From the NCBI GenBank assembly GCA_964016885.1, contig OZ024743.1:282844001-282908000 (forward strand): a stretch of DNA of 64,000 nucleotides. The letters run 5' to 3'. The first letter of the stretch is position 1. Every line of letters begins with the position of its first letter. This stretch comes from Eledone cirrhosa. Lineage: Eukaryota. Position numbers and translations under genes: made by a program. Below, one piece after another: positions 1,095-56,430 of this stretch. The notes under the pieces are model-generated. The model saw nothing but the letters and a program-made list of their open reading frames with translations. It had not been told where the DNA came from and did no database searches.

Positions 1095-2700
1095 CTAAAA
1101 GAACTAGATCATCTGCATAGAGAAGTTCCAATGGACAGCTAGTCTTAAACTCCCCTGTTGCAGGGTGAAAACCACACCTTTCATCAGCTAGCTTGTATTT
1201 GATGATATCTCTATATTTCTTTGCTAGACACTTAGCGTAGACTTTACCAGGGAGACTTCACAAGATCCTTCTATAACTAGAGCAAATTTTCTTGTCTCTC
1301 TTTTTGAAAATTGGGATTATCACTCCTGATTACCATTGCCTTTTCAGAGATCCAGGTCACCTTGCACACATGAGTCAGCCAGAGAATACCTTCTCTATTT
1401 AACCCTTTAGCATTTACATTACTCTATATTTACTAATATATTTTCAAGGTAAAGGCTTTACATCTTATAATTATCTCACATAATATTGAATCTATGAGAT
1501 TTTAATATTATTTATTTTGAGAATAATACCTTAACATCAGTATGAGAGGCCAGTTACAGCCAGTTTGAGCAGAAAGAGGTGAGACAATTCTGGCCAGATA
1601 TGGCCAGTTTAAATGCTAAAGAGTTAAGGCTTTTAACATCTTGGGCTGAATTTTATCTTCCCCAGAAACCTTGCCACATTTGTGCTCTTTATTTGCTCAG
1701 ATGACTTCAGCCTCTAAGAGGTTAGTCTTTGCTCCCAGATGCACCTTATGTACATCAGAAGATGCTGTTGTTATCGGGTTTAGGAGATCAGTAAAGTATT
1801 CTTTCCAGCTCACGAGGAATGCTAGACGTGTTCTTGATAGCAAATGTGGAGGAGGGCGTCTTATTATGAATCAACAGATGGTCCGCCAGAACACTTTATT
1901 TATTTATCTGAAGTCGGATTCCAGCTTAACGCCAAAGTCCTCCCATGTCTTAACTTTGGATGCTTTTACTGTCTCTGCTGTGATTCTTCATGCCTGCTTG
2001 TACTGAATGTGCAAGAAGAAAGACTTATTCCAAGCTAAGCTTTGTAACCCTCCTTCTTTGCTCGGATGCCATCTTTGACCTCTTAATTGAACCAAGGGGT
2101 CTTCTTGCCATCTGGCGCCACACCAAGCCTCTTTCGCCCTTAGCATTTAACACCTGAAGCAGAAACTGCTGCACTTAACAATCTCCACACTGTCTCAACG
2201 TCCTGAGTTTGCTCAGGGAGTTCTCTGAATTTGAATGCAATAGTATCTGCAAACCTTGTCCTGACTTCCTTATCCACCAATGCTTCCCACTTTATTCTGT
2301 AGGTTGCCCTGGACATGCCAGTTTTGTGGGCTTCCTTAGCTTTAGTTAGTCTCAAGCTGCAGATGACTAGCTGGTGATCAATTGACAGCTCAGCCCCTCT
2401 CTTAACACGAACATACAGCACAGAATCAAAGAGATCCAAGACAGTAATGAAATCAATTATTGATCTCCATCTCTAATTCCCCTTATACCATGTATATTTA
2501 TCGATCTATCTGTGCTGGAAAAGGTGTTCATAATAGAGAGTCCATTGCCAGAACAGAAGTCTAGAAAGCTCTCTCCATTCATATTTAGATCGGAGTTGTC
2601 ATTTCTTCCAATCACTCCTTTCCATGTCATGTCGTCAGTGCCAATATGTGCATTGAAGTCTCCCATCAAGATATATGATTCAGTCTTAATTACATCTAAC
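1095..2700 (-). mobile_element. Degenerate RTE-type LINE fragments (APE endonuclease and RT N-terminus), interrupted by a MITE
   Basis: ILMGDFNAHIG and VRVKRGAELSIDHQLV (APE; ORFs 2457-2762 and 2140-2439). IIPIFKK..K.CS.YR..SLPGKVYAK at ~1210-1330 and CPLELLYADDL at ~1100-1145. Frameshifts and stops present; homologous to 12220-13030. Confidence 0.8.
1403..1623. mobile_element. piggyBac-type MITE, family A
   Basis: TTAA at 1399-1402 and 1624-1627; TIR CCCTTTAGCATTTA / TAAATGCTAAAGAG. The homologous LINE at ~12535-12550 shows the empty site (ctatTTAAggctttt). Confidence 0.85.
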
Positions 2701-3432
2701 ACTCTAGGCAGAGCTGTTCTGCTTGAGAATGTGCCGCAGGTGGTGGATAGCGATATGGCCACCAGATACGATGGCTAGTTGCAATATAAGTGGGCAACTG
2801 CCGGACGAATAAGCAACCCCGGATCAACAGCGGTAAACTACTAGGGGAGATGGAGAAATGGGTGACGTAAACAATGGGGAAAACAAACAAGAACCATACC
2901 GCATCGTCCTTCGTGTGTTGTAACAAGGGACACGTTCAGGCCTTAGGTAGAAGGGCCTGTTTGAAAAATAGGCGCTACAACGCTATTAGCTGTCAGTCCA
3001 AGCAGCCGATGGAAACAGGCGAAGGTGACGTCACTCGTCAAACATCGTTTCTTTCCGTTCTTTCCGTATTACTACCACGCGTAAGTGGAGTTTTAACGCG
3101 TTTTTTTGGAGAGAGAGAGAGGGGGGGAGGGAGGGAAGACTTAAAAGGGCCAAATTAGAAAACAAATAGAGGAGAGAGAGGGAAGACTTAAAAGGGCCAA
3201 ATTAGAAAACAAATAGAAAACAAGTCATGGTTATAAAGCATATCGATGTAAGTGGAGTTACTTAAATGAAAATATAGGTAGCCCTTAAAAGGGCCAAATT
3301 AGAAAAGAAATTTTTTTTAATTAGAAAACAAGTCATGGTTATCAAATAAATTTGATTTATTCATTTATATTTTCATTATTCACCAACCTTATTCAAAAGC
3401 ATGTTTAGAAACATTTTTTTCACCAACCTTAT

Positions 3433-4341
3433 TCAAATGCATGGAATCAGATGACGGATATGTTCTAATAACTTTTGGAAAATTTCTCCTTTAAATTCAT
3501 ACCGCCACATGAATTCAATGAGGTGGGTTTGAAGCAAAATTTTGGCTGTCCCGTTTTCCCTGTTATTCCTATTTTTTACGTGTTTCCACAAGCATTCTAT
3601 GTGATTCGTTGTGGCAAATGTTACTGGATCAACAAAATTGATCGAATGGTTCACCGTCAAATATCGATAACCTAGCTGATCGATCGTATTATAGGAACGC
3701 CATAGATCAGATATTATGGTTGTCCCTGGCAATATACGATCCTGTATAATGGTTAAAAGTGTCTCCGCTGTCCTGTCTTCTACTGCTACTAAAATACATC
3801 TTCTGGTACCTCTTTCCAAGGCACCAAAAACCCATTGTGTTTTCACAGAATGGCCACGATTGTATTTCCTTCTCACGAAGGCGCTTTCATCAATCTCGAC
3901 AATTCGGTTTGGCCCGCCAAGCTTAATGTTTTGTGCGACATAGTACTCTGCACAAACATCACGGCAAAAATTTCGCCAATCTGCTACGGCCACATTAGCG
4001 ATACGACATTCCTCTGAAATCTTCTTGGCTAAATCTTCTTTTGCCCCAAAATATAATATATCAACTATCTGTTCACACTTCAAATTGCTATTTTCTAAAA
4101 ATGTGCCTTTTCTAATAGAAACCTGTTTTCTACAAGGTCTTTTACATGACCAGATAATCCCATCTGACACATTTTGTTTCGCTACTTCAAACATATGTTA
4201 ACCACATGAAGGGCAGACCTTTTGTGTATTTAGAAGTCCGTGAATTTTCAACCAATTGACGGTATCTGCTGTAGTAGCGGTAGCGATGGAAAGATCGCGA
4301 TGGTTAATTCCCTTAACACTTGGATATATTATAGAACTCAT
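3433..4341 (-). pseudogene. Merlin (ISXO2-like DDE) transposase, full-length frame with one premature stop
   Basis: Frame extends upstream of ORF 3433-4194 through TAA at 4198-4200 to ATG 4341 (MSSIIYP...WLKIHGLLNTQKVCPSCG*HM...DGIIWSCKRPC.K.VSIRKGTF). Catalytic motifs VEIDES, IISDLW and TNHIEC are intact. Confidence 0.88.
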
Positions 4342-4730
4342 TTTTCAACTTGCAGATGCGTGTATTATCACAAAGTGAAGATTAAAGTTTATTTATTTAC
4401 ACGTGGTGTTGGTGATGATTGTTGCTGATTGGTGGGGATTGTCTCCATGGAGACTGTCGCTTGTCTCCATGGGCACTGTATCCATGCTTTTGAATAAGGT
4501 TGGTGAAAATAATTTGTTTTCTAAACATTTCTTCATAAATATATAGGGTTGGTGACAAAAATTTGATAACCATAATTTGGCCCTTTTAAGGGCCACCTAT
4601 ATTTTCATTTAAGTTAACTCCACTGTTGGTGAAAATGACTTGTTTTTTATATTGATAACCTTTAACTGAAAATATGTGACGTCATTCGTCAACCTTCCCC
4701 TACTTTCACTTCTGACAGCTAATACAGTTC

Positions 4731-5342
4731 ATGGTATTAGCTGATTTAGCCAAGAAGATTTCAGAGGAATGTCGTATCGCTAATGTGGCCGTAGCAGATT
4801 GGCGAAATTTTTGCCGTGATGTTTGTGCAGAGTACTATGTCGCACAAAACATTAAGCTTGGCGGGCCAAACCGAATTGTCGAGATTGATGAAAGCGCCTT
4901 CGTGAGAAGGAAATACAATCGTGGCCATTCTGTGAAAACAATGGGTTTTTGGTGCCTTGGAAAGAGGTACCAGAAGATGTATTTAATAGCAGTAGAAGAC
5001 AGGACAGCAGAGACACTTTTAACCATTATACAGGATCGTATATTGCCAGGGACAACCATAATATCTGATCTATGGCGTTCCTATAATACGATCGATCATC
5101 TAGGTTATCGATATTTGACGGTGAACCATTCGATCAATTTTGTTGATCCAGTAACATTTGCCACAACGAATCACATAGAATGCTTGTGGAAACACGTAAA
5201 AAATAGGAATAAAAGGGAAAACGGGACAGCCAAAATTTTGCTTCAAACCCACCTCATTGAATTCATGTGGCGGTATGAATTTAAAGGAGAAATTTTCCAA
5301 AAGTTATTAGAACATATCCGTCATCTGATTCCATGCATTTGA
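4731..5342 (+). pseudogene. Inverted, 5'-truncated duplicate of the Merlin transposase (catalytic domain only)
   Basis: From 4743 it is the reverse complement of 3433-4035. Two small deletions (-2, -1) scramble ~15 codons (MGFWCLGKRYQKMYLI vs QWVFGALERGTRRCILV) and then restore frame. The ATG at 4731 comes from junction sequence. Confidence 0.85.
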
Positions 5343-6372
5343 ATAAGGTTGGTGAAAAAAATGTTTCTAAACATGCTTTTGAATAAGGTTGGTGAATAAT
5401 GAAAATATAAATGAATAAATCAAATTTATTTGATAACCATGACTTGTTTTCTTATTAAAAATAATTTGATTATAAAACTTAAATTTAAAACTTAAATTAA
5501 TAAATCAAATTTATTTGATAACCATGACTTGTTTTCTAATTAACTTTTTGGCCCTTTTAAGGGCCACCTATATTTTCATTTAAGTAACTCCACTTACATC
5601 GATATGCTTTATAACCATGACTTGTTTTCTATTTGTTTTCTAATTTGGCCCTTTTAAGTCTTCCCCCCCCCCCCCCAAAAAAAAACCGCGTTAAAACTCC
5701 ACTTACGCGTGGTAGTAATACGGAAAGAAACGATGTTTGACGAGTGACGTCACCTTCGCCTGTTTCCATCGGCTGCTTGGACTGACAGCTAATAGCGTTG
5801 TAGTGCCGAAAAATATATTGAAGTCTCCATTTCATGCTGCAAAAACTGGCGATGGACCTGTGACCTGTCCTGGGATAGACGCACAAAGATTGCATATCCC
5901 GAGACCCCAAAGAGGGTCCGGAAGGGGGAAAACCTCGACAGTTGGAATCTTTATAAAAATTTACCGAAAAAATTTCTCTCTGGTAGAATTTATTAAAGTC
6001 TAAGATATTACAAGTTGCTACTCAGAGTTTTACGTCATTTGTGATTAGCAACAACCCGTAACTCAATAGCAACGCACACACATATATTTGTGTGTGTGTT
6101 TTAAGCATCAAGTCTTAATTGAAAATTTCCTATAAAAAAAAATGAAAACCATGGTATTCCATTCAGGAAGTGGAATTCACGTGGCTAATAGGAAGTATAC
6201 AAGATATTTCAAGGGGACGTAACTCCTCAAACAGTATGAAGCTTTTTGTTTTCATTTCTCTTTTCGAATTTGCACACGTTTTTTAAAAACATTAACGTGG
6301 TCCCATTTCGATTAATATACCCCCAAAATTTTAACTTTAGCAGTTTCTTCTGCTATTTACCAAACCACAACG

Positions 6373-6471
6373 ATGTCTTTAACGAGATATAGCACCCGTT
6401 CGTCACTTGCTGGAACAATTTTATTACGGATGAAACATGACGAAATGCACCGTAACAGTAATCATTCCTAT
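6373..6471 (+). CDS. METTL9: METTL9 exon 1
   Basis: MSLTRYSTRSSLAGTILLRMKHDEMHRNSNHSY followed by GTACGT; phase 0 joins WY of exon 2; RS.LA resembles the METTL9 RSPL motif. Confidence 0.75.
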
Positions 6472-9400
6472 GTACGTGATACAAATCACTTGTATTCTGT
6501 TTCTTCAGTTGTCTCCTAATTCTGTCCTAACGCTTCTTTTATTAATATCACTGATAACATAATACACTAACACACATACACACAGAGTATATATATATAT
6601 ATATATTATTTTTCTTATGACAGGCTGAATGAGTTGGGGTCCAGAACCGAACGAAACTTAAGTACCTGTTTATGTCACTGTTGTAATTACATATCTATAT
6701 ACATATATTTGTGTGAGGTAGCAGTGACATGGTTACAGCTTAAACACTTTTAGCGAAACTTCTGTATATTTATTATGCATAAACATATAGGCCTCTAATA
6801 TAATAAAAAAAAACACAAGATAAACACCAGTTTTAAACTGATAAACAAAGGGCCCACTGACGTGATTTGAACCACTAGCTTGTGGGTCTGTTACAGACTT
6901 TCTGTCTCACTGTTTATTTTAATAATTTATAATATTTATATTATCGTAGTCGTTAATTTGTTGATGTGTATACAACAGACACTTCTTATGTTAATACGTA
7001 TGTTTAGCCTCAGTTTAACCCTGTTCAACCTGGTCAATGATCAAAGGCATTTCAACTGTGACTATTTACTTTTTTTGTATATCAGGTTTGTATGTAGGGA
7101 TCTCAAAAGACAAAGCGGGCTAAAAATGAGACGAGGTGGGTGGTGGTGCTTATAATGCTAATCTGGTATTTATTTTTCATCAACATTGAATACACATGAT
7201 AGTAAATAGGAAATATGAATTAGTACAAAATGCTGGGGGACAAATTTTGTTTCAAATGTTCCTTAATTCAGTTTTTACTTTTGGTAAATTCCTTTTTTTT
7301 TTCGTTTTTACTTTTGTTTGTTCCATTTTATAGTAAATTACAATATATTATACCAAGTTATAAGGAAAATATTAAGTCATGAAAATTATTCTGCTGCACC
7401 ACATCGAAAAATAGTTTGCAGGTCTCATGTTTGAGACTCTGCTGTAATATTCTTATTTGATTAAGACAGGTGTGGGTAATTTGGTTGTTGCTTCAAGCAG
7501 GCCAAGCGACTACGTAGAGGCATCTCTGTTGGTTCAGTATGTTTTAGCCAACGTGTAAGATAATACTTATGAATGTTAATTTTCCATATTTCTTTGGATT
7601 AATGATTGTTTTTACATTTGGCATAAGGCCAGAATTTGAAGGAAAGTGGAAAAAAGTATTGTTTTCCTTGATATATTATGTATATATATATATCTGAAGC
7701 TCACGGAGGAGGTGACGAACGACCGTGACAAGTGGAGAGATACTGTGCTGAATAGGACTCGTCCCACCCTTGCAAGCAAGGAAAAAAGGACGTAAAATGA
7801 TGATGATAAGGATATGGTATGGTCCCATAACTCCTGATTTAGTCATAGGGATGTTGTATTGACATACAGGGTTTCTTTGGCATTTTAAGCCTGGTGGAGC
7901 TCATCTTTCCAGGTATATATATATATATAATACAGAAGACCCAACTTCGCATAGGTTCAGGCCGAAGCATATATACAGTATGCCCCACCGACCCTCCGAT
8001 ACATTTCCCAGGCTGAAGTATACATCCAGTGAAACCCCCAGTCCACACTTAATTCACTGTTCGTGTAGGTGTCACAAAAAACACTCAGTCCACACTGTAA
8101 AATGGCCGCGTAGGTGTCATGACAAAAAGCACCTAGTACTCACTGTAAATGAGGTTGGCGTTAGGAAGGGCATCCAGCTGTAGAAGCCAAGCCCAAATCA
8201 GTTCTGTATGAGTAAGACATGATCCCCTGACCTAGCATTGCCCACAACAGGACAACTTGTCTAACCCATGTTAGCATTGAAAAATGGAAGTAAAATGGTG
8301 ATATAATATATATCTGTATGGAATTATTTATTAACATGCATTCAGCTTTCTCAGAAAATATTTAAAATATTTAGGACAATATTGTCAGTGAAAATTTTAG
8401 TTTATTGACCTAATGAGTTAAGTGTTAGTCATCCTAGGAATTTACTTCAAATAACTTGAGACAACTTATAATTTTTGTTTGGCTGATGGATTCTCAGAAT
8501 TGTTAGACTTGAACAAAATGTTTTGTGGCAGTTTTTTTGGACCTTTACAATCCTGTCGAAGTAAACTTTACCTTTCATTCTTCCAGAGTTGACAAAATAA
8601 ATTCCTAGGCTCAATATCATTAACTTTACCTTCTCGCCAAATTGCTGACTTTGTGCCTAAATCAGAAATCATTACTATTGTTGTTGTTTTATTTGTTTGG
8701 TCTAGAAGATGGGGCTGTACCCATGGATTTTGTAGATTGATGCTGTTAAATTCCAGAGGTCCGAAGTTTTGGGAAATATCTGAGCACAGTAGGCCTGGGG
8801 AGTTGCACACAATATGGTAGATAAGAGGAAGAGACGAGTAGATTGAGTGCCTGAGTGGAGGTGGCATAAAACCAGTCAGTTATGAGGCCATTGTAGCAGT
8901 GGTTGAAAAAGCAGAGAGGAGTCAGCAAATCTCTTGTCCAGTGGCTGGAGTGTTTCAGAGTAGTTAAGTGGCCTTTCCATAAATTTGCTCTTGGATGTTT
9001 GTGCATATAGCAGCAGCACTGTCCAAGATATACAAGCAATATTCCCTTGTTGGTCTCACTTCAGCTTTATGAAAGTTAATGCTGATGGTTTTGAAAGAGG
9101 GAGAGAGATTTGAGGAATTGGGGAATGTTAATGACTGTCTCCATCTCCTTTGAGATAATGGAAGTGAGTGAGATAGGATAATAATTGGCAGGAACACTGG
9201 GGTTGCATTTCAAGAGAAGGGAGCACACTGTAGTATGCCTCCAAAGATCAGGATATATTCCTGTCAAGAAAGAGAGAGAGAAATTGAAGAGTTTAATGTG
9301 TATGGGGCTAGTTCTAAGATGCATTATTTGAGGATAATGGTCAGTACATTACCAGGGTTAGTGATCTTGTTGGTTTGAATCACCCAGAGATACTTTCAAA

Positions 9401-12400
9401 CTTGGCATGTATGTGTGCCTGGTGGAGTGGAAGATGATAGTGTTGGAGGAGGTTCATCTAATGTATGTAGAGTTAGAGTTGAATGCAAAGCATGCATGAA
9501 TATGAAGGCTTCTCTTCAGAGGTTCTACTCCCAGAAACATCATAGTTGAGAAGCTGAGGAATGGAGGATTTCACTAAACTGGTAGAGATCCTTTTGGCAA
9601 TGGACCAAAAGGCTTCGTTGGATAGCTTGAAAGCTGTATGTTGCAGGGAGACATATTTTGTGGTTCAAATGACAGTCTTCCATGATGTAGTGAAGGGGAT
9701 AGTCTTGGAAGTACTTTTGAACATGTAAGTGTGCCTGGTGGAGTGGAAGGAGATACAATTGGATGAGGTTTATCTAGTGTGTATAGCATGGAGTTCAATG
9801 CAAACATGCAATGAATGTGGAAGCTTTCTCTTCAGAAGTAAACCTTGTCTACATCAGTTTACTTGGCTGCCAGACAGGCCCACCACTACTTCACAATTGA
9901 CTGAAAACAGCAATTTCAACAATATGCACATGTCCAACTTTATGAAAACCATTTCACCAATGTTTGTATAACAAATGGGTGTTGAAATAATTTTAGATAC
10001 TTAAATTAGTGAATTAAAACTGTTAAATTTATTTGTAAATTGAACTGATCATATTTACAGTATACTGAGATAGACTTTTGTTATATTTTGAATCTAGCTA
10101 GAATTTTCTAAAATTTTGACTAAGTTACTGAACATATGACATTATGATATATATTAATCATATGGATATAATAAAATATATCCAATATGACCATCAAAGT
10201 CCACTGGTATAGTTAATGACATCACCATCTCCAAAGTACTGCCTGGGGCGAACTTTCTCCTTTGGAGGAACTCCACTTCGGTTGCTTGTATTTGCTATTG
10301 TTTCTTATTGTCATTACCCACAATTCATGACTAAGGTAAGGGTTGGTGCAAATACAAAATTGAAGATAGAGAGTTGAGCTTTTACACCTACCTCCCCCCT
10401 GAAGCTGGCACATTACTGTATCAGTTCCTGCAATTCTTGTACTTAATTCAGCCTCTTGCCTCCCATCACTTGTGAACATGACCCTGAGATACTTGAACTT
10501 TTCCACCTGCTTCATTGAAACTCCACTCACATAGAGTGTGCTGTGCACAGGCTTCTTTGAGAGGATGAGTGTCTGTCTTCACAGCACTGCTTTTCATTTT
10601 CTGTAGAGCTGTTTTGCTAGAGAACGGATTGTAGGCTGTGGTAAAGATAGAAACACTAATTATGATGGTTAGGTGCAATTAAAACGGGCTATTGCCGAAC
10701 AAATAAGCAACCCTACACCATCTGCGGTAAACTACTAGGGGAGATGGAGTGACATGTGAAAACCTAGTCTTTGTGGGCCAGAGAAAAGTACCAGCTTGGG
10801 ACTATCATAAATAAGACCACAAAAACCCTGCAATATGGCCAGAAACAATAAAGGGAGTCATTACATCATTCTTCATCCAGGATAACAAGGGACGCATTCA
10901 CATCTTAGGTAGAGGTGCCTGTTTGAAAAATATATTGCAGATTCCACCCAACACTGCAAGAACTGGTGATGTGTCTGTGGCTTATCCTGGGAAGCGTGGG
11001 ATAGACGCACAAAGGTTACATATCCCGAGACTCCAAAGAGGGTCCAGAAGGGAACAAACCTGTATTTTTAACATTTAGAAAAGTTTTGTGTGCTGGTATT
11101 GTGGTTAATTTTCCAAAATTTAAGCACTTCTGTGGGTGTGATAGTTATTTTTGTTAGCTTGACAATTTGAAGCAAGTGAAATAATGTACCTAGCATAGAG
11201 TAGGACATGTTTTAACTTCTCTTACTGAAATACTTTAATATAATTTAACATTCTAGAGTTTTTGAAAGATTATATTTATTTAATAATTTTCCAGTGGTAT
11301 AAATTGAATATGGACCAAATTCCTGAACACATGCACAGTAAATTTTATTCTTTGCATCAAGATGAGGAAACCAAAGAATTTCTAGAAGGATGCTATGAGA
11401 AGGCTGATTGGGTTTTCACTCAAATTTTTTATTCTATATTTCGATCAATCTTAAGTTGGTTTATGACTAATACTTCAATTAACGCGTAAGTAAAAGTTTT
11501 GAATTTATTTGAAAGTATTTTCCTTTAAAAAAATCTGTCATATTTTCTCTCTTAAAGAAAGACTTATTTTAATTATGATTTTATTGCATTCAAACAATCT
11601 AATTTTGTATTATTTGTATCTAAGATCCTTGCGTTATTGTGTGCCATAGTCTTTGGGATATTTTTTGTTATATGTTACTTAGAGCGTGTCTATCTCCTCT
11701 ATCAATTGACTAGACTGAGACAGGCCTGACGGAATTTAATCACAACCATTTTCATACCAACTCACCTGAGCTCTGCTTCTATTATACAGAGCCACTCATG
11801 TTAAATTGCTCATATCTAAATTAATATTTCCCATCAGAATTCTATATAAGAATCTTTCATTGAGTTATATTCCAAACATCAGCTAAATAATGAAAGTAAT
11901 ATTGTATATACTTTTTTCACAAAAATATGACAGGAAAAACCGGTATGTGATTTATCTATAATACTTTTCCATGTGGTATGAGCGGGATTAATCTTTTGAA
12001 GCAATATTTTATGGCTAGATGCCCTTCCTGATGTCAATCCTTACACCCTCATTGAATGGTTTTGACCTAGTACCATTTATCCAAATACAAATACTAGGGC
12101 AATCATATAGAGGCTTCAAGGCAACAAGAAGCTGTTTATTGATCCCTTATTCTTGCAGAACCTTCTGCAATAGGTCCTATGGAATGCAGTTATATGCCTT
12201 TTCGAGGCCTAAGAAATAAACATCAACTCTTGGCAACACTCCCATGATTTCTTGAAGATCTGCTGCAGTGTGAATGCTTGGTCGGCTGTGCTGCATCTGG
12301 GGCGAAAACCACACTGTCCATTAGCTAGCATGGACTTGACAATATCCTTATATCTCTTTGCCAGACACTTAGACTTTACTGGGGAGGCTTGATAAGGAAA

Positions 12401-15400
12401 TTCTTGTATAATTAAAGCAATCTCTCATCACCCCTTTTAAAAACTGGGATTATCATTCCTGATTGTCATTACTTAGGTGCCTTTCCAGAGATTCAGGCCA
12501 CCCAGTACACATGAGTTAGCCAGAGAATACCTTTTCTATTTAAGGCTTTTAACATCTTGGGCCGAATTTCATCTTCGCCAGAGACCTTGTCACATTTGAG
12601 CTCTTTAATTGCTCTGATGACTTCAGCTTCTGAGAGGTTAATCATCACTCCCAGATGCACTTCATGTACATCAGATGTTGCGACCAGGTTTAGGAGATAA
12701 GCAAAGTATTTTCTCCACCTTGCGAGGATGCACCTCTCTGAAGTGCAAAGAACTCCAGATGTGTTCCTGATAGCAAGTGTGGAGAGGATCTTCTTACCTT
12801 TGGACGCCTTTACTGTCTGTATGGCAACTGTTGTGCCTGCTTGTATCGCAAGTGCAAGAAGAAAGACTTATTTCCAAGCCAAGCTTTGTAAGCCTCCTTC
12901 TTTGCTCAAATGGCATCATTGACCTGGTTGAACCAAGGGGTCCTCCTGTCACCCAGTGCCACACCAAATGGCTTTCGCCTTGTCACCCAGTGCCACACCA
13001 AATGGCTTTCGCCTGCAGCATTTAACAGCTGACACAGAAACTGTCGCTGTACATATGTGCAAGAAAAATTGTCAAAACATTGATACTTCTTCATATATCA
13101 ACTTGGTTATTGCTGATTTTTTATTTTCTTATAACAGGAAGAGAATCCAACTGTAGAAACCATGCCACAATTGAATGTGTTAAGTGAGACACTCAAGGTG
13201 GACAGTAGTTCCATTTAAGTACTGACTTGGTCTGTAATGACTTGTCGAACTCATGCCAGCATAGAAAAATGGATGTAAAATGGTCTGGTGAGGAGGGTAA
13301 GTGGAAACCCAGTAGCACAAAAAACAAGTATTGTTAAAATGGCAGATGAATTCCACAAAGACAATGGCCATCCACCCCAACTATGGGTTAAATAGCCTCA
13401 CCAACCTTCAATTGGCCAAATGTGGTGAGTATGGCTACACCCCTGACATAACTAAAACCAAACAGAAAGTGGTGAAAGTCAACCAGGGTTCCTCCAACAA
13501 GTGTGAGAAGGCCCTGGATTGAATTGGATTTTAGAATTAGTTAGAGCTGCTTTCAAAACAGGCAGGTTACTATGATAGATGCCTTTCTTGTATATGGAAG
13601 CAGTAGAAATTGTTATTAAATTAATAATGAGACTATATCGTAAATCAAACTTATATTCTCATGTTTTATTTTCAGGTATTTAAATCGAGGTTCTATGTTC
13701 GTTTATTCTCAAGCACATTTTAGGAAATTGTTAGGGTTAAATGAATCAACAGTCTTTGAAAATCTAATTGATTTAGGTAAGCTAATTACTATTAAAAAAA
13801 AAACAAACAAAACTTAAATGTTTAATATTCCTAAAATGTTTTTCTCAAATGTATTTATTAACTCTTTGAGTGCCCCAAATGCACTAGTATATGCTTTACC
13901 TCCCACACTCTGTGGGCCAAAGACCTACTGGTAAGTTTTAGTTTATTTTATGAAGCACAGGTCTAGACAAAGCAAAGAGAGCAAATTTGATCAAAATATC
14001 TTATTTTATTCTTAACAATTTTTTTTAAGAATGCAAAAATTTACATGTAATCCAAACCTGGGACAATAAAATATCCCAAACAATACTGATACTCAAAGAG
14101 TTAAATTATTACCAATACATGTTAATATACCTCTCTCCCTCCCCTTTCTATCACTAAGAGAACATGGGGGTTTCTTTGTTTTACAGGAGCTGGTGACGGA
14201 ATGGTTACAAAAAAAATGGCTAGCTACTTCAAAAATGTTTATGTAACTGAAGTATCAAACCAGATGAAAATACGGTTAAAAGAAAAAGGTTTCAAGTATG
14301 TATTTGTCTTTATATTTATATTGTATGCAAATATTGTTATCTGTGTTGAATCATTCTCTCACAATTGCTTCATAAAACAAGTTGAATGACTACATTCAAC
14401 TAGTCTTCCAGTATATCTTGTTTACACCTGATACATGAAGCTTTTATGTCAGTGATTCTGAATGTGAGGTGCATGCCCCACAGGTGTTGGAGGGAGTAAT
14501 TTGAAACTTTTGTAAGCTAATTTTTCTCAAATTTTATATTTTATCTTTCAACACCAAACATATTTATATTGAAGGTGGATGGGTAGGGTCAATCAAATTT
14601 TTGTGTGGTGTCATTGTGGGACAAATCCCCAAATAGTTAACTATTGATCTATACTGATCTATACAAGTAACAGCTAAATCATCCTACAATTTAAACTGGC
14701 TGTATCTGGCCAGAATTCTCTCACCTTTTTCTGCTCAAACTGGCCATAACTGGCTACTCATGCTGATGTTAAGGTATTGTTCTCAAAATAAATATCAAAA
14801 TCTCATAGATTCTATATTATGTGAGATAAACTTTTACCATGAAAATACAATAGTAAATATAGTTTTATTGACCCTAGGGGTCACTACAGAGTAATGTAAA
14901 TGCTAAAGGGTTAAAACAAAGCATCTGGTGAGCACTTAGGAAGCTAGGTGTAGACAAATGGCTTGTGAGGGCTGTGCAGGCCATGTATAGAGGAGCAACC
15001 AGCAGATTGAGAGTTGACAATAAGTACAGTGATGAATTTGAAGTGCCGGTGGGAGTCCACCAGGGATCAGTCCTCAGTTCCCTTCTATTTATCATTGTAC
15101 TTCAGGCCATTACCGAGGAGTTTAAGACTGGTGCTCCATGGGAGCTCTTTTATGCTGACAACCTAGTCTACATAGCTGAGTTCATAGGAGAGATAGAAGT
15201 AAAATTTCAAGCATAGTAGAAACCTCTAGAACTGAAAGGTCTAAAAGTAAATTTAGCAAAGACGAAAGTCTTAATAAGTAGGAAAGAAAACAGGAAAGTG
15301 GCTGTGTTCGATGTGTCAGAAAGGGTTGGGCAGAAATTCCATAGGGTACACACAATGTAAATTACAGACACACAGATGTAGTGGGATTGCAGGTAGGCTC

Positions 15401-18400
15401 ATGAAAAAGATAGACTTTATATGTGGCAGATGCACAGGAGAAGTGAGCACAAAGAGCACATGTGAAATAGATTCCCTGAGTTTCCAGGGGAGCTCTGTAG
15501 TTGTCAACAGATTTTGCTACTTAGGCGATCAAATTAGTAGTGGGGGAAGGATGCGCTGAAAGTGATATCTAGGATAAGAACAGGCTGGAAGAAGTTCAGA
15601 GATCTATACCGATGCTAACAACAAAATACTTTTCTCTCGGAGTGAAGGGTAGACTGAATGATGCCTGTGTGTGAATTGCAATGTTACAAGGCAATGAAAC
15701 ATGGGCCTTGACTGCAGAAGCTAGAAAGAAATGAGTTGAGTATGCTCTGATGGATGTGCAATGTTAGTCTGCATGAGCGACATAGCATAAGCAAACTGAG
15801 GAAAAAACTTGGCGTGAGAGGAATTGGATGTAGTGTGTAACAGAGAAGACTGCGTTGGTATGGACATGTGATACACATAGAAGATAGCAGCTGTATAAAG
15901 AAATATAGAGAAACCCCAGTAGCTGGGACCCATGGAAGAGGCAGACCCAGGAAGACATGGGATGAAGTTGTAAAGACTGACTTTAGAAAGCTAAACCTCA
16001 CCACAAAGATGACTAAAGACTGTGAGGGCTGGTGTATGCAGTGCTGAAAGTTGGCAGGACCCTTCAGTCATGTCAGAGACATGACAGCCTCCCTAGTGTT
16101 GATGATTTACATGATAAACCCACTCAGTACATGCATCCAGATGTGGCTCTGCTTCAGTGCTGACTTGGTCTGTATGGACCTGTCCAATCCTTGCTAGCAG
16201 GGAAAGTGGACAGTAAAAAACGATAATGATTCATCCTTTTATTCTTTTCTTGTTCAGTTCTTACTAGCTGGGAAAGTGGATGTTAAATGATGATGATGTT
16301 TCAATTATTAGACTGGATATACTGGGGCACAACCTTAAAAGGATTTAACTTATTATAGTGACCCCAACACTTATTGTTTTCAAGTCTGTAACTTATTTTG
16401 TGAATGTCTTTTTGTCGAGCTGCTAAGTTATGAGGCAAATAGTTATGGACACACATACATATGTATGTATATATATATGATGGACTTCCTAACAGTTTCC
16501 ATCTACCAAATTTCACTCGCATGGTATTGGTCAACAATGCAGTGGGATTGAATCCATGGTTATTACCTCTCTCAGCCTTTACCTTTCTCCAAACATTAAT
16601 AAGCAACAATTAAAATGAAATATAGAACCAATGTCACCGAGAGCTTTATAATGATGAAGAAATCGGTGATGTAACCAAAATAAAATATTTCAAACAATAC
16701 TATTTTGTCTTAGTTTCATTCTAAAACATATGCTAAATACGTCGAGTAAAATGTTATCGTTATGTCTTCTATATAAAATTGACGTTGTTAAAAAAATTCC
16801 TATTTTCGAATGTAATTGAAATAATTTTGTATTTTTTGGTCATAATTTATTTCAGTTGAGTAAACTTTTCTAACGCAACGATGGATACATTTTGAAACAA
16901 CATTTAAAGCTATTTTCTAAATACTTATTTCCAGTCCATGGAATGAAATTTGCCCCTGAAGAATAAAAATTGTTATACAGAAGCATATATGTTAACACTA
17001 TCTTATACTCGACAACAACAAAAAAATTGAATAAAATGAAAATGTGGTTAATGAGAGAAAAAAAAAAATAGAAATTTTGAATTTTCTAAGTTAATTATTA
17101 AATCCGGCCAGGCTGTTGTCAAAATTATCTCCCCTGAAGACCTGCATTTTAAACTATTTTGTGTATGTGAGAAAATATTTTTGGTGATGTATTTTATGCT
17201 AGTAAAAAGAAAAAACAATAATATTGTGTCGGCTCTTCTGTATTCCATTTGTTTCTATTAAATTAAATCATAACCAAGAAAATAGGCGATATCCAATTTT
17301 AGCTGTCTAAATGCCGCTTACTTGCTGCAGTTGCTGCTTGCTTCAATGTATGAGGCTATTCCAACAAATTTACATTCCCCCTTTTTTTAGCCGAAATATA
17401 GATTTATTTATTTTTATTTTTTTGCGATTTATTTGCCACTGGGGCATAGATTTCTTTATTTGCCCCTTTTTTGTTTGTTTTTTTTTTTGGCGATTTATTA
17501 GCCTTTTGGGGTCACACACACCCCCGTAGAAAGTGTGCGACCTTTCTGCCAGGGAGTACAGAGAGAGAGGGGGTGCTCCCTTCTCTTACCTGTACAAGCC
17601 GATATAGAGAGATGGCCCACTTACACGGGCCATTATTGCTATTTTCACCCGAAAAAGGCACTCAGTCCCAGCCAATTCCATGAAAAATGGGTAAAAGTAG
17701 CAATAATGGCCCGTGTAAGTGGGCCATCTCTCTATATCGGCTTGTACAGGTAAGAGAAGAAGGGAGCATCCCCCTCTCTCTCTGTGCTCCCTGGCAGAAA
17801 GGTCGCACACTTTCTACGGGGGCGTGTGTGACCCCAAAAGGCTAATAAATCGCAAAAAAAAACAAACAAACAAAAAAGGGGCAAATAAAGAAATCTATGC
17901 CCCAGTGGCAAATAAATCGCAAAAAAAAATCTATATTTCGGCTAAAAAAAAGGGGAATGTAAATTTGTTGGAATAGCCTCATACATTGAAGTAAGCAGCA
18001 ACTGCAGCAAGTAAGCGGCATTTAGACAGCTAAAATTGGATATCGCCAGAAAATACATTTTTTTTTCAATATTCTACTTGTTCAGCTGAAAACATGGTTG
18101 TTATTGTTTCTAAATATAAAATATTTTCTTAATTTATTTATATGTTTTAGAAACCTCGAGTTAGATAGCTGGGCAAATGGAGACATAGTTTATGATGTGA
18201 TAACATGCTTGAACTTGCTTGATCGCTGTAATGAACCACTCACTATCTTAAAGCAAATAAAGAATACATTACGGCCCGACTCCGGAAGACTGGTTGTCGC
18301 TCTTGTTTTACCGTTCAGTTCTTATGTGGAAGAAAGTAAGTTGTTCTTCTTTTCCTCTTATTAAACGCTATTATTTAAGATTTTAAGATTTTAAAATAAA

Positions 18401-19850
18401 GTAGCAGTAATGCACTAGGTAATTGCTGGCCTTGTGCCAAAAGTAGAAACAATTATTTAAGATTTTAAATAGCTCCACACTAAAGTTGTTAGATGATCAA
18501 TTGTTGCCATAAAGCTCATTAGAGCAGTAGTTTGTAGTATCTCACAAAGTCCGCGCAGTATTTCGTATATTATTATAGTTTGTGGATTGGCAGTATCCAT
18601 AGAGGGTCGGACGCCATGCTTTGCAGCCTAGTTACGATCCTTTAAGGTCTGAGTTCAAATCCCGCCGAGGTTAACTTTGCCTTTCATTCTGACGGGGTCG
18701 ATAAAATAAAGTATAATAAATGCGCTGAGATAATTACTGGCCTTGTGCCAAAAGTAGCGCGGAGGTTAACTCTTCCTTTCATCCTTACAGGATCGATAAA
18801 ATAAAGTACCAGTCACACACTGGAGTCGTTTTAATCGACCTTCCCCTCCCCCCAAAATTGCTGGCCTTGTGCTTATATAAGAAACCATTATTATAGTTTG
18901 AATTCAAATCCCGCTGAGGTCGACTTTATTTTATCAACACCTAGAAAAATGAAAAGCAAAGTACTGAGGTCTATTTAATCGATGGCCTCCTTTCCAAATA
19001 TTTGTGACTTTGTTCCTATGTTAGAAATCATAAAGCATATTCTGCTCGTCCTAGGCTACCTAGATCAGTATAGGTGCTATACTAAATTTTTTTTGTTGCA
19101 TTGTTACAAATTCAATGGTAAAAAAAATCATTTTATTCTTTTACTGGTTTGTCATTAGATTGCAACCATTCTGGGGCACCACCTGAAAGTCAATGAATCC
19201 TTGATTACTCAGGCATATGTTACGTACATACAGTATAATGATTTCTAATTTAGGTACAAAGCCAGCAATTTGTGGGGAAGGTAAAGTTGATTATATACCG
19301 GGCCTTGTACTTTACCGGAACACATCTGATTTCTTTCCAGAGAAAGAAACAGCAAATTTCATATATTTGCTGTCAGTCATCCACTGAATGATAAAATGTC
19401 ATATCATCTAAGTTTCCCTTATGAAAAAGAATGGAATAAAATGCAGTCTAGTCTTACATATGTACAGGAATTTAGCCCTTGAATGGTGTTCTGAATAACA
19501 ATCATGAGAGAACAATTGAAAAATCATTTAGGATTATTTTTTCATTTACATTTTACTTAATTTACTCATTTGTTGATATTTTGAATTTACTTTCTATTTT
19601 AGATTCTGTGGATCATACTTCAGCTGAAAAATTAAACATTAAAGGTTCTGGTTTTGAAGAACAACTTGTAAGTTTTGTAACTGATGTCTTAGAACCACTA
19701 GGCTATGAGTTGGTAACATTTACACGTGCTCCGTATATATCAGAAGGTGATATCTCAACTTCATTTTATGTCATTTATGATGCCATATTCATTTTGAAAG
19801 TTGCTAACAATAATGCTACAGAATCTTATGAGAAAGACAAATGCCCCTAA
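6373..19850 (+). CDS. METTL9: Protein-L-histidine N-pros-methyltransferase METTL9 (DREV family), 6 exons, 310 aa
   Basis: Exons 6373-6471, 11295-11485, 13676-13776, 14187-14295, 18151-18335, 19603-19850; all GT-AG, phases consistent, 933 nt. Motifs TSINAYLNRGSMFVYS, LIDLGAGDG (SAM motif I), YDVITCLNLLDRC and FTRAPYISEGD match METTL9. Confidence 0.95.
6620..6669 (+). ncRNA. Type I minimal hammerhead-ribozyme-like motif (Penelope-associated type) in METTL9 intron 1
   Basis: ACAGG-CUGAAUGA-[GUUGGGGU CCAG AACCGAAC]-GAAA-CUUAAG-UA-CCUGU: stem I, core with one extra nt, stem II with two mismatches, palindromic stem III, GUA site. Lies beside (TA)n. Confidence 0.6.
8690..9870 (-). mobile_element. 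Highly degenerate LINE (CR1/Jockey-like RT remnants)
   Basis: LSFLTGIYPDLWRHTTV...PANYYPISLTSIISKEMETVIN and KAEVRPTREYC motifs; an internal ~120-bp diverged duplication (9405-9520 vs 9720-9840). Confidence 0.6.
10220..11060 (-). mobile_element. RTE-type LINE RT C-terminal fragment joined to the same non-coding repeat that the Merlin element interrupts
   Basis: MKQVEKFKYLRVMFTSDGRQEAELSTRIA (ORF 10222-10548). 10670-11060 aligns by eye with 2770-2970 + 5808-5935. Confidence 0.7.
11295..11485 (+). CDS. METTL9: METTL9 exon 2
   Basis: ttccAG|WYKLNMDQIPEHMHSKFYSLHQDEETKEFLEGCYEKADWVFTQIFYSIFRSILSWFMTNTSIN|GTAAG. Confidence 0.95.
12220..13030 (-). mobile_element. Degenerate RTE-type LINE fragment
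   Basis: Collinear with 1160-2160; DQQCGFRPRCSTADQAF-like RT N-terminal remnants; 35-bp tandem duplication at ~12945-13012. Confidence 0.7.
13676..13776 (+). CDS. METTL9: METTL9 exon 3
   Basis: ttcAG|(A)YLNRGSMFVYSQAHFRKLLGLNESTVFENLIDL(G)|GTAAG; not in ORF track. Confidence 0.95.
13862..14100. mobile_element. piggyBac-type MITE (separate family)
   Basis: TTAA at 13858-13861 and 14101-14104; TIR CTCTTTGAGT / ACTCAAAGAG; makes up most of METTL9 intron 3. Confidence 0.7.
14187..14295 (+). CDS. METTL9: METTL9 exon 4
   Basis: tacAG|(G)AGDGMVTKKMASYFKNVYVTEVSNQMKIRLKEKGF(K)|GTATG. Confidence 0.95.
14690..14910. mobile_element. piggyBac-type MITE family A (one end truncated)
   Basis: Reverse-orientation copy ending TAAATGCTAAAGGG-TTAA. 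Confidence 0.75.
14920..16230 (+). mobile_element. Degenerate RTE LINE (RT to 3' end)
   Basis: VGVHQGSVLSSLLF, PWELFYADNL, Cys-rich insert, RLRWYGHV, GRPRKTW; many stops; same family as 43355-45470. Confidence 0.85.
17285..18047. mobile_element. Non-autonomous fold-back element with Merlin-like termini, 8-bp TSD
   Basis: Arms ~17285-17650 and ~17689-18047 are near-perfect inverted copies with a ~38-bp spacer. Ends GGCGATATCCAATTTTAGCTGTC; TSD AGAAAATA at 17277-17284 and 18048-18055. Confidence 0.88.
18151..18335 (+). CDS. METTL9: METTL9 exon 5
   Basis: tttAG|NLELDSWANGDIVYDVITCLNLLDRCNEPLTILKQIKNTLRPDSGRLVVALVLPFSSYVEE|GTAAG. Confidence 0.95.
18390..19030 (+). mobile_element. Cluster of tRNA-derived SINE copies and fragments
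   Basis: Repeated gagttcaaatcccgccgaggt-(t/c)aactttgcctttcatc...gtcgataaaataaagtac...ctggccttgtgcc modules with B-box-like GTTCAAATC; the same family recurs at ~34760, 40860, 41650, 50610, 57372 and 62830. Confidence 0.7.
19603..19850 (+). CDS. METTL9: METTL9 exon 6 (last coding)
   Basis: tttAG|SVDHTSAEKLNIKGSGFEEQLVSFVTDVLEPLGYELVTFTRAPYISEGDISTSFYVIYDAIFILKV...CP*. Confidence 0.95.

Positions 19851-25102: not shown

Positions 25103-56430
<31,328 letters not shown>

Follow-up and report, generated by a model that had tools for sequence, protein, structure and literature searches.

The Merlin superfamily, which is related to IS1016 and IS1595, is recognized by GG termini, a TSD of 8 or 9 bp and TIRs of 24-462 bp (PMC8101967). 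In one of its elements, the 2.57-kb Sy.m_F1, the 5' region is duplicated in opposite orientation, and neither "palindrom" nor "composite" appears in the main text of the paper describing it (PMC8101967). In Mu killer, as well as in the Ac killers, the 5' end is duplicated and transcribed, siRNA is made and silencing takes place in trans (bioRxiv 10.1101/2020.01.07.897926). The FoSTeST model, proposed for multicopy Pack-TIRs, is one of switching followed by transposition (PMC8277862); Merlin has no occurrence in the available text of that paper. Moreover, template switching is known to occur at short inverted repeats (PMC10766186), and centre deletions stabilise palindromes (PMC8701086). Among the openly accessible papers listed in our literature search, we found no report of a palindromic two-gene or giant Merlin.

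In this study, we analysed a 64,000-nucleotide stretch of the Eledone cirrhosa genome (the window), which contains an element comparable to each of these systems. Like described Merlins, the window element has GG termini, an 8-bp TSD, a DDE_Tnp_IS1595 domain and internal tandem repeats; unlike those in the available text of PMC8101967, it carries two divergent transposase copies and arms of 1065 bp, and has cargo-bearing relatives of 13-48 kb. As in Mu killer and likewise the Ac killers, part of a DNA transposon forms an inverted duplication of kilobase size, but the window element duplicates the 3' end instead of the 5' terminal region, and its form recurs many times. With Galileo and Foldback it shares internal sequence drawn into longer inverted ends, repetitive subterminal regions and many derivatives, whereas Galileo has a P-superfamily transposase and no central hairpin origin in the text available (PMC3573991). 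The TIRs of the window element are long and internally repetitive, and Galileo copies with extended TIRs are its nearest structural analogue, with no two-transposase Galileo copy seen in the available text of that source (PMC3573991). Multicopy Pack-TIRs (PMC8277862) resemble the window element in that a template switch within a TIR element precedes transposition, and in having amplified cargo between TIRs, which fits the giant relatives described below; in contrast, the switch proposed for the window duplicates the element's own sequence, and the cargo seen in the giants is made of repeats. Common captured sequence does lie between the TIRs of these giants, at several sites whose TSDs differ. 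Palindrome formation at short inverted repeats or centre-break deletion is exemplified by Tetrahymena rDNA and by the double Ds of maize. A short central inverted repeat, a loop found both ways and asymmetric centre deletions are common to palindromes of this kind and to the window element, whose product differs in being bounded by transposon ends and a TSD (PMC10766186, PMC8701086). What is new lies more in the recurrence of palindromes across two families, and in the giants, than in the idea of a killer locus.

The features of the locus are as follows.

1163 to 5935, minus strand: old, LINE-like host repeat, interrupted by the element near the repeat's upstream end
2963 to 2970, no strand: left TSD copy, 8 bp, sequence GAAAAATA
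2971 to 4035, minus strand: left arm, with the 3' ("A") end, GG terminus, subterminal repeats and 3' two-thirds of the transposase
3433 to 4341, minus strand: left transposase copy, 302 codons, ATG at 4341, premature TAA at 4200-4198, PF12762
4036 to 4742, no strand: spacer, with the transposase 5' third, upstream region and hairpin remnant
4667 to 4743, no strand: collapsed remnant of the family's 71-bp hairpin, TIR-like, without the terminal bases
4743 to 5807, plus strand: right arm, repeating the left one in inverted orientation, with a transposase fragment to 5342 and a second A-type end
5808 to 5815, no strand: right TSD copy, 8 bp, sequence GAAAAATA
6373 to 6471, plus strand: first coding exon of METTL9, 558 bases to the right of the TSD
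10925 to 10932, no strand: single target motif, in a paralogue of the host repeat that is uninterrupted
G000:C2:36344524-36369827: example of a giant Merlin elsewhere in the genome (L033-L062)

Sequence comparison confirmed the inverted arms that had been predicted for this locus, as well as the single 8-bp TSD bracketing the whole element, whose two copies match at 8/8 positions. A single insertion site is thereby supported; the motif occurs 10 times on the plus strand of the window (1.6e-4 per site). The arms differ by 4 substitutions in 648 aligned core columns and by several indels in the subterminal repeats. The endonuclease match of the host repeat is weak and under the Pfam cut-off. An empty site had been placed at about 10921; the motif is indeed found there once, and both element flanks align to this place at 76-77%, but it belongs to a paralogous copy of the host repeat and is not an orthologous empty allele. 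Contigs from public runs X1-X3 (one sample), X4 and X5 were compared with 4060-6200 and 4670-4810, and none crosses the junction; these contigs collapse family 1, that of the window element, and are unlike the window copy at many positions. Contig depths in runs X1-X3 reach thousands at 4615-4743 and 5500-5715, revealing a miniature element of very high abundance that has the hairpin and subterminal motifs in common with the window copy.

Of the two divergent transposase copies predicted in the window, both code for PF12762 above the cut-off (E 1.5e-17 and 3.2e-12), each arm spanning about 200 of the 302 codons, and neither is intact. The left copy is interrupted by its TAA, and the right one is truncated, with the first third absent, and carries deletions of 2 bp and 1 bp. 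The window copy is likely inert now. PF12762 also matches the intact 302-aa frame of relative L039 above the cut-off, and it is the only match among the transposase domain hits, with none of the P superfamily to which the Galileo enzyme belongs. Three putative acidic residues of the transposase were assigned on the basis of known motifs. Altogether, the GG dinucleotide at both window ends, the TSD (8/8 in the window, and at least 7/8 in 8/10 giant end pairs) and the IS1595-type DDE domain (DDE_Tnp_IS1595, in both arms and in L039) bear out the Merlin identity of the element. Compact relatives (L131, L133) and giants fit TIRs of 24-462 bp with one transposase gene; the window derivative, with 1065-bp arms and two gene copies, lies beyond this range.

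The spacer does contain the 5' third of the transposase, as foreseen, but the original other end that was also expected there is not a working one, 4667-4743 being a shortened internal hairpin. The first arm of this hairpin runs to 4725, the tip has been lost and the second arm is down to 18 bases before the junction into the right arm at 4743, which shows 1 base of microhomology. The intact family-1 hairpin has a 71-bp stem and a 4-base loop, with a folding energy of -88.1 kcal/mol (z -27.8) as compared with -15.3 for the window remnant. A hairpin anchor was present in 32 copies, 3 more loci being without it, and the hairpin is complete in 17/32 and broken or rearranged in 15/32. The loop occurs in both orientations among family-1 copies. 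In the compact relatives L129 and L137, the same motif is the working TIR, with eight extra terminal bases, and thus the family-1 hairpin motif is a TIR relic and not a terminus. Of note, the hairpin tip at L045:3570-3810 has grown to about 10 tandem 23-bp units, two of which are found in the sister palindrome L046.

The original prediction, while right about Merlin, overlooked a giant parent family with an internal hairpin and palindromes in two families. Most family-1 copies run past the hairpin into shared cargo, and walking and end pairing placed the true far end of sister copies 17-48 kb off. Among 10 giant end pairs, the TSD matches at 8/8 in six, one of them weak because it sits in an AT repeat, at 7/8 in two, and is unmatched in two; the far ends without a TSD match are those at C4:287.4M and C3:375.3M. 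No far end was found in 50-kb stretches of 3 copies, nor within 20-30 kb for L049, L045 and L041. Of the 25.3 kb of one giant, three others each match 20.6-21.3 kb, and the left flanks of giants are unrelated in 6/6 pairs. Their cargo, as seen, is made of repeats (LINE pieces, satellites), and the long frames in it, among those listed, are LINE-like or low-complexity. Two giants keep open transposase frames, of 302 aa and 300 aa. Moreover, transposase-less giants of 13-44 kb have a TSD common to both ends in 6/8 end pairs tested, two of these six being one duplicated site. In one of them, the junction with the same cargo lies about 5 kb farther outward, and the coding giant therefore looks derived. 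The family-1 A end and the far end have terminal bases in common. In addition, the last 200 bases of the giants' far end form an imperfect fold-back of about 190 bases.

Exact far-type ends number 68, many of them within short elements, and 404 A-like ends were counted at no more than 2 mismatches, which suggests many more relatives. L043, L083 and L132 have in common a head-to-head junction between the end of a non-coding giant and the end of a transposase arm; in L043, where the arm in this fusion is palindromic, an 8-base repeat bounds a composite of about 40 kb. Merlin elements of 13-48 kb with exact 8-bp TSDs imply that a transposase this small is able to move tens of kilobases and has been multiplying repeat-rich DNA within a 3-Gb genome.

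Near-full palindromes with TSDs exist in both families. In family 1, the sequence turns into an inverted arm at this hairpin in L031, L043, L046 and L047 too, and the turning point is particular to each of them. L031 has two A ends in 3050 bp and a TSD of 8/8, and L046 is a near-full palindrome of 3281 bp with two A ends and a TSD of 7/8, both with their own junctions; the left end of L047 is missing. Short copies with two A ends are also found, one with its own junction and a TSD (L082, 706 bp, 7/8) and two without a TSD match (L085, L081). The suggestion that the window element is an intermediate towards fold-back elements fits the existence of such short derivatives with two like ends.

Family 2 was identified by a protein search, which yielded a divergent transposase pair with 41% identity to family 1. 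This pair belongs to L121 (L121:2046-5873, G000:C11), a near-perfect palindrome of 3828 bp with two divergent genes and a TSD of 8/8, whose halves show 1881 matches and 15 mismatches. All 29 candidates for the L121 centre were scored and 17 loci examined, of which 10 have two ends and a TSD of at least 7/8, 2 look compact with a short 5' end and 5 show one end within 10 kb. Besides L121, 7 TSD-bounded copies are collinear with it, with the left arm, the right arm or the centre deleted. No shared cargo was found past the family-2 hairpin. Compact-looking copies with a short 5' end include L153, L163 and L165; hence, the family-2 palindromes may each be new. This picture does not extend to every Merlin: a long two-arm palindrome around the transposase was found in 0/20 loci of other Merlin families, one of which has an inverted fragment of 282 bp at 84%, and the idea that all Merlins here are palindromic was rejected. 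Of note, the family-2 copies L167:3444-5648 and L168:3940-5879 sit on separate contigs and agree in their 8-bp TSD and in the few flanking bases beyond it, yet their internal deletions are not alike, and 650 bases beyond L121 lies an unrelated, perfect fold-back sequence of 676 bp (6522-7197). Altogether, one genome and two Merlin families offer a series from compact element to hairpin, full palindrome, centre-deleted palindrome and miniature fold-back, so that the origin of long-TIR (fold-back) elements can be tested on natural copies.

The two window arms derive from one aged copy. They are mutual nearest neighbours (4/648; 98/87 in the tree) in a family with a median divergence of 2.6% (561 pairs). 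Of their departures from the family majority, 19 are common to both arms (3 at an indel), 4 are private to the left arm and 6 to the right. The only terminal difference between the arms, at 2974, is confined to the left one. Most shared variants are also present in L049, a cargo-less copy broken at the hairpin, and three are absent from it. In the tree, the window element pairs with L049 (100/99) and L046 with L045 (96/92); these sisters of palindromes are one-armed, cargo-less, hairpin-broken copies and not giants. A basal position of the window lineage relative to the giants was rejected, most of its variants being derived against 13 outgroup rows. The subterminal indels of both arms and L049 yield no order of events, and in a test of continuity with the left flank, just the first 100/200 bases of the L049 right flank were repeated elsewhere. 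Loop orientation is divided 16:4 among cargo-bearing copies and 4:6 among cargo-less ones (Fisher p 0.045, the copies not being independent and 3 unclassifiable ones left out), as expected if a symmetric form loses either arm.

We consider it fairly probable, if by no means certain, that the window element is a head-to-head double, in which hairpin fold-back gave a full palindrome, the transposase made it jump and a deletion at the centre gave the spacer. DNA broken or stalled at the 71-bp upstream hairpin would fold back and copy one arm, yielding a full palindrome of about 3.4 kb; the transposase would then act on the two like ends and move the palindrome here as a unit, and a deletion from its centre would leave the spacer seen in the window. 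Each of these steps has a precedent (PMC10766186, PMC8277862, PMC8701086). The transposase-bearing giants would likely stem from the same centre, where 71 bp of the second arm would have been joined to cargo from a non-coding giant. Fold-back, jump and the relative timing of jump and deletion are inferences. Movement as a unit and formation in place by template switching had both been put forward; a rearrangement of the template-switch type is upheld by our data, and the unit move is favoured short of proof. Several observations count against a jump: no palindromic junction recurs at different sites in either family, the family-1 palindromes are not one clade, and the L121 arms have 8 private variants in common and 2 that are arm-specific. 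Given these L121 variants and the three missing from L049, a jump needs arm-to-arm conversion or a duplication after it. The window junction has no second copy in the genome (1 match at no more than 1 mismatch). It had been argued that a unique junction would speak decisively against mobility, which is too strong, since private centre deletions are a known fate of palindromes (PMC8701086). On a broader and more tentative level, some Merlin families may propagate as head-to-head palindromes, with a mobile master of two genes and two like ends that is remade from the upstream hairpin; its decay would produce fold-back and miniature elements and, where a distant end is captured, cargo-carrying giants of 17-48 kb.

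Formation in place appears less likely to us, though well possible. Here, a giant would have inserted first; a repair or replication strand would later have changed template at the hairpin, run back along the left arm and rejoined the far end within its roughly 28 shared terminal bases, with deletion of the cargo and retention of the old TSD. The uniqueness of the junction and the absence of arm-shared variants from L049 agree with this course, as do the terminal bases common to A and far ends and the left-only change at 2974, which a switch inside the TIR would allow. Moreover, giants are the commonest form, and they do break in place at the hairpin, as L040, L050 and L057 break there and then resume in cargo. 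However, two precise switches across tens of kilobases would be needed at each of several loci, the sisters of the palindromes are without cargo, loop orientation is unlike between cargo-bearing and cargo-less copies, and family 2 has no shared cargo beyond its hairpin. Two independent Merlin insertions, adjacent or nested in opposite orientation, have counterparts in the nested or adjacent family members at L039, L058 and L086, but one TSD surrounds the whole element with none at the junction, and the arms share derived variants absent from 34-36 other copies aligned there. The mutual nearness of the arms and these variants largely refute two insertions, which we regard as highly improbable, and also make an assembly artefact unlikely. 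Palindromes are a known hazard of long reads (PMC8701086); nevertheless, a fold-back artefact has very little probability here, as the arms differ by substitutions and by indels reaching about 85 bases, one and the same host repeat carries on in both flanks around one TSD, and the right arm has a subterminal segment common to L049 and absent from the left arm.

The locus had been proposed as a putative killer, whose read-through RNA would fold into about 1 kb of double strand and silence the family. We find this role doubtful. Within the coding part, similarity between the arms is about 99%, the maize Mu killer and Ac killers are precedents, and read-through could be supplied either by METTL9, whose start codon is 558 bases away, or by the LINE-like repeat, the upstream end of which encloses the element. 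In contrast to the maize killers with their 5' duplication, the 3' end is duplicated here, and the element sits upstream of the point where METTL9 coding begins, not within a coding intron. Transcription from the centre of the element would yield two sense RNAs, and only outside read-through would pair the arms. Moreover, the two giants with intact frames differ from each other at 4/651 positions, as recently split as the arms (4/648), which indicates that the family was still copying at about the time the arms split. Read-through of a palindrome, should it take place, would naturally supply dsRNA directed at the family to which that palindrome belongs, in an animal lineage known for heavy RNA editing.

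The METTL9 gene has six coding exons in the window (6373-19847, plus strand), and its first exon is 86% and 80% identical to the octopus and argonaut proteins. A location of the element within a METTL9 coding intron was rejected because the start codon is at 6373, and a non-coding METTL9 exon may lie further upstream. The stretch 6030-6200, about 200-400 bases from the element, contains what we take to be CRE-, ETS- and E-box-like words and is a possible METTL9 promoter. Elsewhere in the window, on the minus strand, we observed a Spin-doc type zinc finger likely to come from another DNA transposon (2-397), exons of a HECT domain (27541-29389) and a LINE reverse transcriptase with a PHD-like finger (43709-44905).
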